64,000 bases of DNA, taken from IMG/VR virus record IMGVR_UViG_2687453623_000004; one strand, written 5' to 3'. Under the pieces are notes generated by a model. The model was not told the DNA's origin, made no database searches, and saw only the letters and a program-made list of their open reading frames with translations. The DNA comes from a virus (Duplodnaviria > Heunggongvirae > Uroviricota > Caudoviricetes). How positions within the stretch are numbered: the first letter of the stretch is position 1; every line of letters starts with the position of its first letter. Made by a program: the position numbers and the translations under genes. Below, one piece after another: positions 6,684 to 18,610 of this stretch.

Positions 6684-7019
6684 ATGTCACAGACCCCATC
6701 CGATACTTTTAAATTGTCTTATCCCTTCACCACTGCTGCAGGCACCAGAATTGAGCTGGTTGAACTGAAACGCCTGACGGTAAAAGACCTGAAGCAGGTG
6801 CGCAAAATCAGCAAAAACCCGGCAGACTGGGACGAACCGCTGATTGCCCGCAGTACTGGTCTTCTCCCGGAGGATCTCGACAATATGGATCTGGCTGATT
6901 ACCTGCAGTTACAGAAACGATTTCAGCTCATCACGGGGATGGGTGAGAGCAACCAGGGCGCTGACGCAGGCGCAGGGGCTGCTGGCGAGATGGTTCCGGT
7001 TTCAGCCGGGGGAGATTGA
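6684..7019 (+). CDS. tail assembly chaperone (Mu gp41 / P2 gpE analogue)
   Basis: 111-aa acidic ORF immediately upstream of the tape measure gene; RBS caggagca upstream; overlapped at its 3' end by a second frame (see frameshift product). Confidence 0.6.
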   Translation: MSQTPSDTFKLSYPFTTAAGTRIELVELKRLTVKDLKQVRKISKNPADWDEPLIARSTGLLPEDLDNMDLADYLQLQKRFQLITGMGESNQGADAGAGAAGEMVPVSAGGD

Positions 7020-7101
7020 TGCCCTCGATACTGACGATCTGGAGATGTGGCTGGAGCAGGCTGAAGAGCAAATCAAAAGCGAGTACGGCGACAAATCATA
7101 G
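6684..7101 (+). other. putative programmed-frameshift product of the tail assembly chaperone (shift to the +1 frame, equivalent to -2)
   Basis: Second frame 6844..7101 has no plausible start of its own, overlaps the last third of the chaperone gene and adds ~28 aa (…RFQPGEIDALDTDDLEMWLEQAEEQIKSEYGDKS); a G5 run at 7008-7012 lies in the overlap. Confidence 0.4.
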
Positions 7102-7176: not shown

Positions 7177-10128
7177 ATGTCGGGACAGTTTTCAGTCGGC
7201 GTTGTTATCGGCGGGATGATTGGCAGCACATTCCGTTCTGCAATGAGCGGTACCCGCCGTGCGCTTGATTCCCTGAGCGATACCTCACGCCGCCTGCAGG
7301 AACGTCAGAACGCTTTAACCCGTGCAACAGAACGTTATGGTCAACTGGGTTCTTCCCGGATGCAGCATCTCAACAGCGAGCTGCTGCGGGTAAGCCGCAC
7401 CATGGAGCAAATTGAGCGCCAGCAGCGCCGTCTGTCAGCGGCATCCGCTACCAGTGATGCGCTGAAAGCTAACCGCATGGCGCTGTATGGTCAGGGGATT
7501 GAAGCGTATGGCATGGCACAGACTGTTTATCATACGGTTTCCCCTGCCGTTCAGCAGTCCATGTCTTTTCAGGACAAAATGATTGATATGTCGATCACCG
7601 CAAAATATGACAATAAAACGCGGGATGCACTTGCCGGACAGATAAAAGGCTGGGCGCTTAAATACAATCAGTATCAGGATGAGCTGCAGGAGGCGATGGG
7701 TTCACTCATCAGCGACAATATTGATAATGTGTCAGATATCGGTTTTCTGATGCCGGATATTGCCCGCGCGGCAACGGCAACACGCACGTCTGCTCAGGAC
7801 TGGGCAAAAGTGGCCGCAGTCTGGCAAAACTCCCTGAAAGGCGCGGCCAGAGATTTTGGTGCCGTTCAGAATATTATGGCTTATGCCGGTGACCAGGGGT
7901 CATTTGAAATCCCGGATCAGGTCAAGTGGATGCAGTCCCTGGCCCCAATGATGGCGGGTATTGCCAGTGGAAAAGAGGCTGTTGCTGAAATCGGGGCCAG
8001 TCTCCAGATAGCAAAAATCGGTGCAGGTTCCACCGACGAAGCAGCCAATAATTTTAAAAACTTTCTTACCAAAATTTTTGCCCGCGATACTCAGAAACAG
8101 TTTGCTGATCTGGGTATTGATTTGCAGGGATCTATTGCGAGTTATAAAGCTGCGGGGATCTCTCCGATTGAAGGGATGTTGAGTGTTATAGAACGTTACC
8201 TCAATGCCAAAAGCCCCGAAGCGCTGGCCGGCTTCAAATCAGCCATGAAAATAAAGAATGATACGGCAAGAGATGAGGCACTTCAGGCTCTGGCGAAAAA
8301 CTTTGGTCTGGGCGATATGTTCGCGGATATGCAGGTCATGGCATTTATCCGCCCGATGCTGGCCAACATGGACAGATATCGAGAGATCCGTGCCGGTGCT
8401 CTCAGGGCTGCGGATAACGATTTGCTTGCCAGTGCTTATGATCAGCGGCTGAAATCTCCCCTTGAAGCCACTAAAACACTTATGGTCAGCAGTCGCGATC
8501 TGGCAATTACGCTGGGCGATCAATTAGCTCCATCTTTTATTTCTCTGACTCAGGACTTGCTCCCACTCATTCAGGGGACAAAACACTGGGTGGCGACTCA
8601 CCCGCAATTTGTCAGTGGGGCTTTTAAGCTCATCAGTGCGCTCCTTGCGATTAAGATAGCGACTGTTGGTCTCAAACTGGGGCTGAATCTCCTTATTTCC
8701 CCCTTTGTGAACGTCTGGAAAACTGCTGTTTTACTCCGGACCAACTGGCATCGACTGACTACCGCACTCGGAGAAGGTGGCAAATTACGCTGGCTTGTCA
8801 CTGGATTCAGCCGACTGACCAGCGGAGGACTGAAACTCAGCAAAGTTCTGGCGGGCAGCCTCGTTCGCGGTTTTATGAGCGCTGCACGTGCCGTTCTCTG
8901 GATTGGGCGAGCGCTGATGATGAATCCCATCGGTCTCGTTATCACCGCTGTCGCGGCAGCAGCTTACCTTATCTACCGCAACTGGGGGGCAGTCAGTGGC
9001 TGGTTTAAACAGCGCTGGGCTGACATTCAGGAAGCCTTTAACGGCGGTATCGCGGGAACTGGTAAGCTGCTGATTAACTGGTCGCCGGCAGGCCTGCTCT
9101 ATAAAGCCTTTGCGGCTGCGCTGAAATATTTCGGCGTTACTCTGCCGGCAAAGTTCACCGACTTCGGTGGCCATCTTATCGACGGTTTGATTAACGGTAT
9201 CAAAAACAAATGGGGGTCGCTCAAATCCAGTGTAACCGGAATGGGTGACAGCATCAGTAGCTGGTTTAAACAATGCTGGGCTGACATTCAGGAAGCCTTT
9301 AACGGCGGTATCGCGGGAACTGGTAAGCTGCTGATTAACTGGTCGCCGGCAGGTCTGCTCTATAAAGCCTTTGCAGCTGCGCTGAAATATCTTGGTGTTG
9401 ATCTGCCGGCAAAGTTTACCGACTTCGGTGGCCATCTTGTCGATGGTCTGATTAACGGTATCAAAAACAAATGGGAGTCGCTCAAATCCAGTGTAACCGG
9501 AATGGGCGACAGCATCAGTGGCTGGTTCAGCGAAAAGCTGGGCATTCATTCGCCGAGCCGCGTGTTTATGGGCTTTGGTGACAATATCGCGCAGGGGGCC
9601 GCCATTGGCCTGCAGCGGACCACTCCGCTTGCAGCTCTGGCCGGGCAGCGAATGGCCAGTGAACTGCTCCCCAGAATGCCCGTGAGCATTCAGGGGCCAG
9701 AAATACGGGATAACACTTCAGGTGTTCGCTTCAGTATGCCGTTGCCCGATATCAATGGGTTTATGTCGTCTGCTAAAAATGCGATCGGAGCCGTAATCAA
9801 TAGTTTGTCTTCCATGCCCGCTATTCCGCTCTCCACCCGGGCATCGATTTTACCAGGGCAACGTCTGGCAAATGAGATGACACCGGATGTTCCCCGTATC
9901 CCCTCGCCTGAAATCCTGGCTGCCGGATATTCAGGCCGTGGTGCAGCTGCAACCGGCGGTGGAACGTCTGGTGGTATCCAGGTCAGCTTTAATCCTCAGT
10001 TTTTCCTCAATGGCAGGGAAACCACAGCGCCTGCAGGACTGACTGGTGCCCTGAATATGAGTCTGCATGAGCTGGAAAAAATGCTGGAGCGTCTGCTGGC
10101 TCAGAAACAACGTAAGGAGTACCGCTGA
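7177..10128 (+). CDS. tail tape measure protein
   Basis: 983-aa ORF after the chaperone pair; RBS ccggaggt upstream; helical N-terminal region, hydrophobic central segments, internal tandem duplication. Confidence 0.85.
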   Translation: MSGQFSVGVVIGGMIGSTFRSAMSGTRRALDSLSDTSRRLQERQNALTRATERYGQLGSSRMQHLNSELLRVSRTMEQIERQQRRLSAASATSDALKANRMALYGQGIEAYGMAQTVYHTVSPAVQQSMSFQDKMIDMSITAKYDNKTRDALAGQIKGWALKYNQYQDELQEAMGSLISDNIDNVSDIGFLMPDIARAATATRTSAQDWAKVAAVWQNSLKGAARDFGAVQNIMAYAGDQGSFEIPDQVKWMQSLAPMMAGIASGKEAVAEIGASLQIAKIGAGSTDEAANNFKNFLTKIFARDTQKQFADLGIDLQGSIASYKAAGISPIEGMLSVIERYLNAKSPEALAGFKSAMKIKNDTARDEALQALAKNFGLGDMFADMQVMAFIRPMLANMDRYREIRAGALRAADNDLLASAYDQRLKSPLEATKTLMVSSRDLAITLGDQLAPSFISLTQDLLPLIQGTKHWVATHPQFVSGAFKLISALLAIKIATVGLKLGLNLLISPFVNVWKTAVLLRTNWHRLTTALGEGGKLRWLVTGFSRLTSGGLKLSKVLAGSLVRGFMSAARAVLWIGRALMMNPIGLVITAVAAAAYLIYRNWGAVSGWFKQRWADIQEAFNGGIAGTGKLLINWSPAGLLYKAFAAALKYFGVTLPAKFTDFGGHLIDGLINGIKNKWGSLKSSVTGMGDSISSWFKQCWADIQEAFNGGIAGTGKLLINWSPAGLLYKAFAAALKYLGVDLPAKFTDFGGHLVDGLINGIKNKWESLKSSVTGMGDSISGWFSEKLGIHSPSRVFMGFGDNIAQGAAIGLQRTTPLAALAGQRMASELLPRMPVSIQGPEIRDNTSGVRFSMPLPDINGFMSSAKNAIGAVINSLSSMPAIPLSTRASILPGQRLANEMTPDVPRIPSPEILAAGYSGRGAAATGGGTSGGIQVSFNPQFFLNGRETTAPAGLTGALNMSLHELEKMLERLLAQKQRKEYR
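8988..9530. repeat. intragenic tandem duplication (two ~261-bp units plus a partial third) inside the tape measure gene
   Basis: Unit beginning tggtttaaacagcgctgggctgacattcagg recurs 261 bp later with few substitutions; the protein shows the ~87-aa block WFKQ…GMGDSIS twice in frame. Confidence 0.85.
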
Positions 10129-16754: not shown

Positions 16755-17369
16755 TCAGCCGGCAAGCGCCAGTGGCGCTTCCGGCCAGCTGATTTCAGGT
16801 GCCTTGCTGATATCCAGTGCGTTCAGCTCGTCGATATAATCCAGCACGGCGTTCAGTTTTGCCGTTTCTTCTGGTTTCAGACTGCGACCAGCACGCAGTT
16901 TGAGGTTGATAAGATCGACGGACGCCATCGCCTGTTTCACCCGTTGCTGGCGTTGCTGTCTGGCAACCTCCAGTTCTGCGGCTCGCTGCCGTTCAGTATC
17001 GGTTACCCACGCCTCACCGTTCCAGGTATCCCATGGCGTGGCTGGCTGTTTTGTGGTGGTGTCCGCCGGGTAATCACCCGGTTGGGTAATCAGAACGGGG
17101 TTACCGTTCTCCGTGCTGTATACCGTCTCGCCGCGGTGATCAGGCACATGCTCCCACCCGTTCAGCGTGGCAGTCCGGCAAACCACGTAACCCGAAATTG
17201 CTTCCGGCGGTGCATCGGCGCACGAATGTGCCGGAGTACCCACCCCAAGGGCGAGATACTCCACAGAGGATGAGGTGTATTCCCGGGTTTCCTCGTCATA
17301 GTGATATACAGTGATATCGCCCGCTACAGTGGCGATACCGTTTTCATCCAGAACTGCAGTGTTACTCAT
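16755..17369 (-). CDS. tail fibre assembly protein (Tfa, Mu U'-like)
   Basis: 204-aa ORF; C-terminus …ELNALDISKAPEISWPEAPLALAG typical of Tfa chaperones; start overlaps the stop of inverted cassette 3. Confidence 0.75.
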   Translation of the reverse strand: MSNTAVLDENGIATVAGDITVYHYDEETREYTSSSVEYLALGVGTPAHSCADAPPEAISGYVVCRTATLNGWEHVPDHRGETVYSTENGNPVLITQPGDYPADTTTKQPATPWDTWNGEAWVTDTERQRAAELEVARQQRQQRVKQAMASVDLINLKLRAGRSLKPEETAKLNAVLDYIDELNALDISKAPEISWPEAPLALAG

Positions 17370-17851
17370 TAAACTGCCCTCACAATGTAATTAAGTGCAA
17401 TGCTACGGGGTCTGACAGTGATACCCTTCGCATACCCGCTTCTGATAGAGGTCAGAATAGTAGCCTGCATACCATTGTCTGACATTGCCACGACAGGATC
17501 GCTGAATGTTGTCCCGTCCGGCATTTTAAAGCTGCCCTCACGAAGGTCTGTAATGGAATCTTCATTGTTGAATCCCATGCCGACTATCCCCGAGGTTCCC
17601 GTAGTGTCCTGGTTATAATAATCCAGCATTGCTGTTCTTAACAGCGTTGCCCCTTGTGCGGACAGCAACTTACGTCCTGTATCAACTTTGCGCCCGTCGT
17701 CCCATCCACGGATAAACTCACCGCGTAAATCGGGAAGACGGAGGGTCGGGTAGACTCTGGCCAGAACAGGATATTGTTCTTTTGTAAAGGCGCGCCCGTC
17801 GCACTTTAACCAGCCTGCTGGCGGTGTGGCGGTGGGCCACGGAACAGGCAC
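17369..17851 (-). CDS. alternative tail-fibre C-terminal cassette 3 (inverted, promoterless; Mu Sv'-like)
   Basis: 160-aa frame on minus strand with GTG as first codon; first ~64 aa nearly identical to cassette 1; upstream frame closed by TGA just beyond the crossover site. Confidence 0.6.
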   Translation of the reverse strand: MPVPWPTATPPAGWLKCDGRAFTKEQYPVLARVYPTLRLPDLRGEFIRGWDDGRKVDTGRKLLSAQGATLLRTAMLDYYNQDTTGTSGIVGMGFNNEDSITDLREGSFKMPDGTTFSDPVVAMSDNGMQATILTSIRSGYAKGITVRPRSIALNYIVRAV

Positions 17852-17886
17852 ACCAACGGGTAGCGCCGAGCCTTCTCCTAAACCAA
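17693..17886. repeat. inverted repeat (~194 bp) matching 15844-16037
   Basis: Reverse complement of 17693-17886 is almost identical to 15844-16037; delimits an invertible segment of ~2.0 kb. Confidence 0.85.
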
Positions 17887-17899
17887 CGTTTATCTCTCA
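17874..17899. other. putative invertase crossover site 3 (inverted orientation)
   Basis: …ccttctcctAAACCAAcgtttatctc…; boundary of the inverted repeat, ~55 bp upstream of the invertase gene. Confidence 0.4.
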
Positions 17900-17952
17900 A
17901 ATCCTCCCCACATTATCTCAGTACTTTAACCACTCAAAAGGGAGTATTTTTA

Positions 17953-18525
17953 ATGCTGATTGGCTACATACGTGTGTCAACAAATGACCAAAACACAGAT
18001 TTGCAACGCAATGCATTAATGTGCGCAGGATGTGAACAGATTTTTGAGGACAAAATGAGCGGAACCAAGTCGGAACGACCAGGCCTGAAACGCGCTTTAA
18101 AGTGCCTTAAAAGAGGGGATACATTGGTGGTCTGGAAGCTGGATCGGTTGGGTAGAAGAATGAAACACCTCATTGCTCTCACAGAAGAGCTACGCGCAAA
18201 AGGTGTCAATTTTCGCAGTCTGACGGATTCAATCGATACCAGCACTCCGATGGGAAGGTTCTTTTTTCATATGATGGGTGCACTGGCAGAAATGGAGCGT
18301 GAACTGATAGTTGAGCGCACGCTGGCTGGACTGGCTGCTGCGCGAGCACAAGGAAGAGTTGGAGGACGTCGCCCGAAACTGACGAAGGAGCAGCATGAGC
18401 AGATCGCAAGATTGCTCCAGAAAGGGTATGACAGAAAGCGGCTGGCAATTATCTATGATATTGGACTGTCAACGATCTACCGCTATCACCCTGTTGGGAC
18501 TGTCATAACGCAACCTGAAATGTAA
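17953..18525 (+). CDS. serine DNA invertase, Gin/Pin/Hin family
   Basis: 190 aa from ATG 17953 with RBS aaagggag upstream; MLIGYIRVSTNDQNTDLQRNAL… and C-terminal HTH (…YDIGLSTIYRYHP) closely match recalled Gin/Pin sequences. Confidence 0.85.
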   Translation: MLIGYIRVSTNDQNTDLQRNALMCAGCEQIFEDKMSGTKSERPGLKRALKCLKRGDTLVVWKLDRLGRRMKHLIALTEELRAKGVNFRSLTDSIDTSTPMGRFFFHMMGALAEMERELIVERTLAGLAAARAQGRVGGRRPKLTKEQHEQIARLLQKGYDRKRLAIIYDIGLSTIYRYHPVGTVITQPEM

Positions 18526-18529
18526 TTCT

Positions 18530-18610
18530 TTTTCAAATAATGAAACGCCGCGTGGATGCCATTTATCGCACAAGATAGAGTGCATTTATCGCGCGGCGCA
18601 TCATTCTTCA
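18530..18610. mobile_element. Mu-like right terminus (putative transposase-binding repeats ending …TTCA)
   Basis: Two copies of CATTTATCGC(A/G)C within 40 bp, then …gcgcggcgcatcattcttca; recalled Mu right end contains CGATAAATGCG and ends …GCGCCGCTTCA; homology to phage genes stops here. Confidence 0.45.

Follow-up and report, generated by a model that had tools for sequence, protein, structure and literature searches.

The gene for the tape measure protein (TMP) of the tail in a BcepMu/Mu-like prophage of Escherichia coli sequence type 131 (ST131) was found to carry a tandem repeat of an 87-codon unit, whose copy number varies among related prophages. The gene lies in a stretch of 64,000 nucleotides of viral DNA (IMG/VR virus record IMGVR_UViG_2687453623_000004), referred to here as the window. 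Comparison of the window with its relatives indicates that a single duplication, in the common ancestor of these E. coli prophage alleles, gave rise to the repeat, and that two-unit arrays (983 aa) have repeatedly been turned into one-unit arrays (896 aa) and three-unit arrays (1070 aa) by unequal homologous recombination. With considerable confidence, we read the array as one old duplication, kept under purifying selection and varied in copy number by unequal recombination, which by analogy with other phages would act as a dial of tail length.

The repeat array and its copy-number variants

Tandem Repeats Finder (TRF) detected a single array at 8993-9527, with a period of 261, 2.0 copies, 93% matches and no indels, and with a score (958) far above chance. 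The same block was seen again by position-by-position comparison at an offset of 261. The gene and the parts of the array are listed below, in window positions, with the evidence that defines each given in brackets.

7177..10128, plus strand: tail tape measure protein gene, 983 aa (open reading frame, PF10145, PHROG tape measure families, TIGR01760, RefSeq name)
8995..9255, plus strand: repeat unit 1, 'first-type', 87 codons, TMP aa 607-693 (TRF, register and translation, diagnostic sites, first-unit clade)
9256..9516, plus strand: repeat unit 2, 'last-type', 87 codons, TMP aa 694-780 (TRF, register and translation, diagnostic sites, last-unit clade)
9014..9092, plus strand: 79-bp stretch identical between the units, the longest such run, with its partner at 9275-9353 (unit comparison)
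8993..9005, plus strand: left copy of a 13-nt direct repeat, TCAGTGGCTGGTT, which encodes S-G-W-F (boundary sequences of the window and of related loci L003, L010, L004, L007 and L008)
9515..9527, plus strand: right copy of TCAGTGGCTGGTT, the 13-nt direct repeat, where the degenerate partial unit begins (boundary sequences; end of the TRF array at 9527)
9517..9612, plus strand: degenerate partial unit, GWFSEKLGIHSPSRVFMGFGDNIAQGAAIGL (a unit-like start, followed by likeness to unit positions 46-70, by eye)

A preliminary description of this DNA had reported a near-perfect, in-frame 261-bp tandem duplication with very few differences between its copies, spanning 8988-9530. The tandem, head-to-tail and in-frame arrangement was borne out, and the peptide quoted there, WFKQ(R/C)WADIQEAFNGG...GMGDSIS, was correct. 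The copies were less alike than had been claimed, however, differing at 16 of 261 nt (93.9% identity) and at six of 87 residues (G2S, R7C, F46L, T49D, I62V and G74E). Nine of these differences are synonymous and seven non-synonymous; 15 are transitions of all kinds, and the remaining one is C/A. Synonymous (dS) and non-synonymous (dN) divergence between unit 1 and unit 2, as determined by the Nei-Gojobori method, were 0.168 and 0.036, respectively, with a dN/dS ratio of 0.21. The divergence between the units thus has the character of ordinary mutation under purifying selection on both copies.

Two other candidate readings of the region were rejected. The differences are not limited to adenines, and their mixture of transitions and synonymous changes does not fit the target of a diversity-generating retroelement. 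An antisense open reading frame of 254 codons (8785-9549, minus strand) spans the repeat and has been doubled together with it; it was classed as a shadow frame because only five of the 16 differences leave its residue unchanged, compared with nine in the TMP frame. A promoter and terminator scan of 8700-9800 found nothing beyond shuffled expectation.

The degenerate segment at 9517-9612 looks, by eye, like an older and decayed copy of the unit, hinting at an earlier round of duplication. Many distant TMPs carry an additional partial match, to unit positions 46-87, directly behind a full unit. A self-BLASTP search of the protein for older internal repeats returned the trivial self-hit only; the resemblance of the segment to a unit therefore rests on inspection and on the partial matches in distant TMPs.

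The preliminary description had proposed a comparison with homologous genes carrying a single unit, and such alleles were found. Among complete genomes, one-unit alleles encode proteins of 896 aa (L003), 892 aa (L004) and 821 aa (L007 and L008), two-unit alleles proteins of 983 aa, and three-unit alleles proteins of 1070 aa (L005, L006, L015 and L016). Strain EC21GDE043 is an example of a three-unit strain. The array does not have the properties of a phase-variable contingency repeat: the unit of 261 nt is a multiple of three, and all one-, two- and three-unit alleles in complete genomes are open reading frames. The best 120 protein clusters by score included 28 of 896 aa with one unit, 42 of 983 aa with two and 17 of 1070 aa with three, the rest being mostly truncated; no cluster with four full units was present among these 120, a score-ranked set with the 1070-aa forms on top. 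Of the 633 complete E. coli genomes carrying a relative, 60 were sampled at even spacing, and about 41 of their alleles had two units, 12 had three and five had one; four of the 12 three-unit calls were confirmed by reading the sequence. Copy-number classes were set by identity bands together with this sample, since an 80% coverage threshold does not separate one-unit from two-unit alleles, both of which reach 100%.

The composition of the units in these alleles points to the mechanism of their formation. In one-unit alleles near the window, the unit is chimeric: its 5′ part is unit-1-type and its 3′ part unit-2-type, and the crossover point is not the same in L003 as in L010. In L006, the middle unit of the three-unit array is chimeric in the opposite sense, with a unit-2-type 5′ part and a unit-1-type 3′ part, and in the other three-unit arrays the middle unit is almost wholly unit-1-type. 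Tandem direct repeats of a few hundred bp gain and lose whole units by RecA-type unequal crossing-over. The window array appears to share these features, namely whole-unit gain and loss, and chimeric units with junctions in stretches of identity. The two types of chimera have the structure of reciprocal products of unequal crossing-over between misaligned two-unit arrays, and at least two independent events of each kind are visible. The expectation in the preliminary description that the repeat would be recombination-prone is thus well supported.

The clearest case is a one-unit ST131 allele. Loci L009 and L010, the latter from the complete genome of IPCEC48, encode the one-unit protein P0103 and show no mismatch to the window in the 3 kb upstream, the 3 kb downstream or the rest of the gene. 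Across 8.7 kb, they differ from the window only by an exact loss of 261 bp. The crossover lies somewhere from unit site 19 to unit site 99, and the 79-bp identical stretch falls inside this interval.

A second length polymorphism was observed in the same gene, at window positions ~9661-9873 (TMP aa ~829-899). A segment of 71 residues (213 nt) is absent from the 821-aa proteins of L007 and L008; by span arithmetic, phage Phi06_2974 B probably lacks it too, as does Klebsiella phage KP12. A short, diverged direct repeat, GQR[ML]A[SNA]E[LM], lies on both sides of the segment.

The tape measure gene, the repeated module and tail length

Identification of the gene as a tape measure was upheld by profile matches and by its place in the tail module. 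The 983-aa protein matched Pfam PF10145 (PhageMin_Tail) over aa 159-340 at 74.6 bits (cut-off 33.2, E=1.3e-20) and TIGR01760 (tape_meas_TP901) at 59.9 bits (cut-off 28.8, E=2e-16). Several PHROG tape measure families also matched, and in strain EC958 the RefSeq name is 'phage tail tape measure protein' (WP_000016538.1). The tail genes are ordered sheath, tube, overlapping gpE-like and GpE-family open reading frames, TMP, gpU, gpX, gpD, gpV, gpW, gpJ, gpI and fibre. This sheath-tube-chaperones-TMP-U-X-D order is of the P2 type. Position and length are as expected of a tape measure, the gene being the longest of the module and standing after the chaperone pair and before the distal tail and baseplate genes. 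The chaperone genes are as follows.

6684..7101, plus strand: overlapping tail assembly chaperone pair, gpE / gpE′-like, P2 type, at 6684-7019 and 6943-7101 (RefSeq coding sequences mapped from L002, EC958; PF10109 Phage_TAC_7; phrog_166)

A programmed -1 frameshift is likely in these two chaperone reading frames, just upstream of the TMP gene.

The window sequence is identical, over the 1.3 kb tested, to many E. coli ST131 chromosomes, including that of EC958, in which the prophage adjoins aroA-serC. There, the Mu-type head and packaging genes (equivalents of gp27-31: DUF3486, DUF935 portal, Mu F and Mu G) are present by RefSeq annotation. Escherichia phage PhiKM (PQ738613.1, Bcepmuvirus) has the same gene order as the window and is 99.3% identical in nucleotide sequence over the TMP gene. 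Its head genes are annotated Mup27-31, and transposase, Gam, GemA and Mor-like C are annotated as well, in a part that falls outside the 64-kb window; by their presence in so close a relative, the window's own prophage would be expected to carry a transposase and Mu-type early genes. The element, an E. coli ST131 prophage of the BcepMu/Mu-like kind, has a contractile tail module of the P2 type, and its earlier description as Mu-like was correct. At the right end of the prophage (window ~16980-18530; L002 28382-29926), a recombinase-family gene stands beside tail fibre genes on the opposite strand, one of them truncated. Invertible host-range segments of the Gin/Cin type have this layout; aroA and serC come next.

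The 87-residue unit occurs well beyond this prophage. A HMMER scan of 1.84 billion cluster representatives with the unit returned 573 proteins at E <= 0.001. Among the 90 representatives of at least 700 aa that were listed, 23 matched the unit two to four times, each match covering most of it (at least 55 residues), with spacings of mostly ~60-120 residues. In P0122, P0123, P0133 and P0144, and less consistently in P0128 and P0129, the copies were mutually nearest, at 53-74% identity. Because copies are nearest to one another within their own lineages, separate duplications of the module are indicated for several distant lineages. It was also present in 134 deposited phage records, mostly of Burkholderia and Ralstonia phages and a few of Pseudomonas phages. 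The records listed showed 36-54% identity to the unit and one match each. They include BcepMu-like and P2-like myophages of Burkholderia (BcepMu-like phiE255, P2-like phiE52237, and phiE094) and Ralstonia (P2-like RSA1, and RSY1), where the match lies, as in the window, within the annotated tape measure gene of a contractile-tailed temperate phage. These records thus hold a single unit match each, while the window has two and its relatives up to three.

Neither Pfam nor NCBIfam gave anything above cut-off for the unit, the array or the flanking regions, and a whole-protein sequence search of the PDB gave no match at E <= 0.01. For aa 561-830, AlphaFold2 run on the single sequence gave an unusable model, with a mean predicted local distance difference test score (pLDDT) of 41.5. 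Natural tape measure units have been described as 11 (or 18) residues long with periodic Trp or Phe, their number varying among related phages by duplication and loss (Belcaid, Bergeron & Poisson 2011, PMC3271669). The window resembles these cases in having in-frame tandem repeats in a ruler protein, whose number varies among relatives (one, two or three). Unlike those units, the one described here has 87 residues and lacks an 11-residue aromatic periodicity: autocorrelation of W/F over the repeat-bearing region gave a z of 0.7 for lag 11 and of 0.8 for lag 18, that is, no periodicity of 11 or 18 residues.

Directly upstream of the array, Kyte-Doolittle analysis identified a hydrophobic region.

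8629..8973, plus strand: region with hydrophobic, membrane-segment-like stretches at aa 485-519 and aa 581-599 (Kyte-Doolittle)

Peaks in a 19-residue window reached 1.88 and 1.83 in this region and 1.21 within the unit. The array thus begins seven residues past a strongly hydrophobic segment, while the unit itself is only moderately hydrophobic. The layout is like that of TP901-1, where a hydrophobic region directly precedes the repeat region (PMC5099701).

Tail length is known to change in proportion to tape measure length in lambda gpH (Katsura & Hendrix 1984) and T4 gp29 (Abuladze et al. 1994). In the TP901-1 tape measure (Pedersen 2000; Mahony 2016, PMC5099701), removal of 347 aa shortened the tail from 118 to 65 nm, or 0.153 nm per aa, and duplication lengthened it (PMC5099701). 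At ~0.15 nm per residue, each 87-residue unit would lengthen or shorten the tail by ~13 nm, or about 10%. Tails of three lengths would then be expected from the 896-, 983- and 1070-aa alleles, and the array would be a coarse natural dial of tail length. By analogy with lambda, T4 and TP901-1, an effect of ~13 nm per unit appears reasonable.

The module may instead have a main role other than that of a ruler. It could contribute to envelope-channel formation or chaperone binding during DNA injection, in which case copy number would tune infection instead of, or besides, tail length. Tape measure proteins reportedly take part in forming the conduit for DNA (PMC8616913, PMC5099701), and the short distance between the array and the hydrophobic segment would suit such a role. 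Purifying selection on the sequence of both copies, and conservation of the module at 36-54% identity across BcepMu-like and P2-like phages, are more than a pure spacer would need. The only moderate hydrophobicity of the unit, however, speaks against such a main role. In TP901-1, moreover, deletions in the repeat and hydrophobic regions both changed tail length in proportion to their size (PMC5099701). Injection and ruler roles are not mutually exclusive, and the sequence conservation of the module would allow a second role in binding the chaperone or crossing the envelope; a main role in injection seems unlikely.

It is also conceivable that the prophage is cryptic, so that tape measure length has no phenotype and copy-number variation is neutral drift in a decaying element. 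The related locus L003 does have a frameshifted gene and an internal stop in neighbouring tail genes. In the window and EC958, however, the whole late region is annotated intact, save one truncated tail fibre gene beside the invertase. The ratio of dN to dS between the copies, the retention of the reading frame in all copy-number variants, including the 1070-aa alleles, and the deposition of a 99.3%-identical sequence as a phage also argue against decay, and we regard this explanation as quite improbable.

A ruler function of the repeat would have two further consequences. The array would be a natural, reversible tail-length switch within one prophage lineage, acting in ~13-nm steps, and the 87-residue module would be a previously unrecognized, large ruler unit of P2/BcepMu-type tails. 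We consider the chances that this is so to be about even.

Age and origin of the duplication

To place the duplication in time, the differences between units were compared with outgroups and across alleles. The single-copy outgroup alleles L004, L007 and L008 match unit 1 at about half of the 16 differing sites and unit 2 at the rest. Because the outgroups are split about evenly in this way, each unit has acquired derived states of its own. Units from four two-unit and four three-unit alleles, including two-unit alleles with left flanks 9.5% from the window, were then clustered. Out of 261 sites, first units differed from each other at a mean of 4.9 and last units at a mean of 2.7, whereas first units differed from last units at a mean of 16.6. 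In a neighbour-joining tree, the units formed one 'first-type' and one 'last-type' clade, so that they were grouped by position in the array and not by genome. This grouping indicates a single duplication, older than the diversification of these alleles.

The preliminary description had called the duplication recent. That was not confirmed, as the copies are 6.1% apart (dS 0.17), each has derived states of its own, and the units cluster by position across diverged alleles. Under the strongest form of the claim, the duplication would be very recent and private to this genome or lineage, with copies that selection has not yet tested. In its favour, this is the youngest duplication of the module that was seen, its copies being 93% identical in protein compared with at most 74% in other lineages with mutually nearest copies. 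Against it stand the 16 differing sites of 261 with their dN/dS of 0.21, the derived states of each copy relative to the outgroups, and the unit-1 and unit-2 signatures common to two- and three-unit alleles with flanks up to 9.5% from the window. Already contradicted by the positional clustering, a private and very recent duplication is highly improbable. The word 'recent' holds only in the relative sense that no younger duplication of the module was found anywhere.

The TMP gene is itself a mosaic. Two-unit alleles depart from the window by up to 9.5% in the left flank and by 0.3-1.5% in the right. By eye, the outgroups L004, L007 and L008 are near the window in aa 1-110 and from ~aa 470, and very different in aa 110-470, which holds the PhageMin_Tail domain.

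The unit of single-copy alleles already has a short direct repeat on either side, which reads TCAGTGGCTGGTT (13 nt) in close relatives and, in L004, GCTGGTTTAA (10 nt). Slippage or illegitimate recombination at this direct repeat of 10-13 nt (S/G-W-F codons) would yield exactly the observed junction. The flanking direct repeat probably provided the microhomology for the original duplication.

Assembly, annotation and significance

The repeat in the window is real and not an assembly artefact. Of 633 complete E. coli genomes with a relative, 362 contain the two-unit sequence at >=99% identity, and assembly error is therefore excluded for the two-unit allele. An artefact is also unlikely because the copies differ in a codon-aware manner, a pattern that assemblers do not make. 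The preliminary description had suggested a check for collapse or expansion of the assembly, with read evidence for only one copy as the outcome that would speak against the duplication; the finished genomes settle the matter in its favour. Short-read assemblies do break at the repeat, as in the PhiKM record, and annotation software calls some three-unit alleles pseudogenes, but the copies have 16 codon-aware differences, and hundreds of genomes finished independently of one another contain the same two-unit sequence, so that the idea of a falsely expanded single-copy gene has practically no chance of being correct.

The repeat is nevertheless a hazard to assembly and annotation. In PhiKM (L001 4915-5014, PQ738613.1), a gap of 100 Ns begins within the 79-bp stretch common to both units, and the TMP gene is annotated as two fragments. 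The record, which is partial, includes the start of unit 1 and, of unit 2, everything except the first 21 nt, and copy number cannot be read from it. Intact three-unit genes at L005 (685-3897), L006 (703-3915) and L015 are annotated by RefSeq and the Prokaryotic Genome Annotation Pipeline (PGAP) as pseudogenes, with the label 'incomplete; partial in the middle of a contig', or as two fragments. L005 and L006 translate to 1070 codons without an internal stop, and the three-unit gene of L016 is annotated intact (WP_001529030.1). The repeat thus breaks, or may collapse, short-read assemblies, so that draft-genome copy-number calls for this gene are unreliable, and it leads PGAP to label some intact 1070-aa genes as pseudogenes.

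Several points weigh against the explanation given above, of an old duplication varied by unequal recombination and acting on tail length. A collapsed short-read assembly gives the same unit-1/unit-2 chimera as a true deletion, and most one-unit records from draft genomes are therefore ambiguous. The one-unit protein P0103 is listed on 435 contigs, of which draft-assembly records were not counted as evidence, and its exact allele was found in only three complete genomes, those of IPCEC48, TUM14759 and AVS0947. Since the gene is a mosaic, with flank divergence from 0.3% to 9.5%, the relative dating of the duplication is approximate. The effect on tail length rests on analogy, and the sole hint that the prophage can be induced is the PhiKM phage record, itself partial and with a gap inside the repeat. 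By our own estimate, a ring of the tail tube measures ~4 nm; the ~13 nm expected from 87 residues at 0.15 nm each is thus not a whole number of rings.

For lambda, T4 and TP901-1, it is textbook knowledge that duplications in the tape measure alter tail length, and the principle is not new. The locus is a new and clear, but ordinary, example of a known phenomenon, the change of tape measure length. A literature search found no paper on the tape measure repeat of this prophage or on PhiKM, which does not prove that none has been published. Unlike the cases described before, the variation seen here occurs within a single prophage lineage of one bacterial clone, and with both reciprocal products of recombination. 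What the locus adds is a clean natural series of one-, two- and three-unit alleles, together with the two reciprocal crossover products and an isogenic pair; the prophage is Mu-like, has a contractile tail and resides in a clinically important, pandemic clone. This allelic series makes the ruler hypothesis directly testable in a P2/BcepMu-type tail without engineering.

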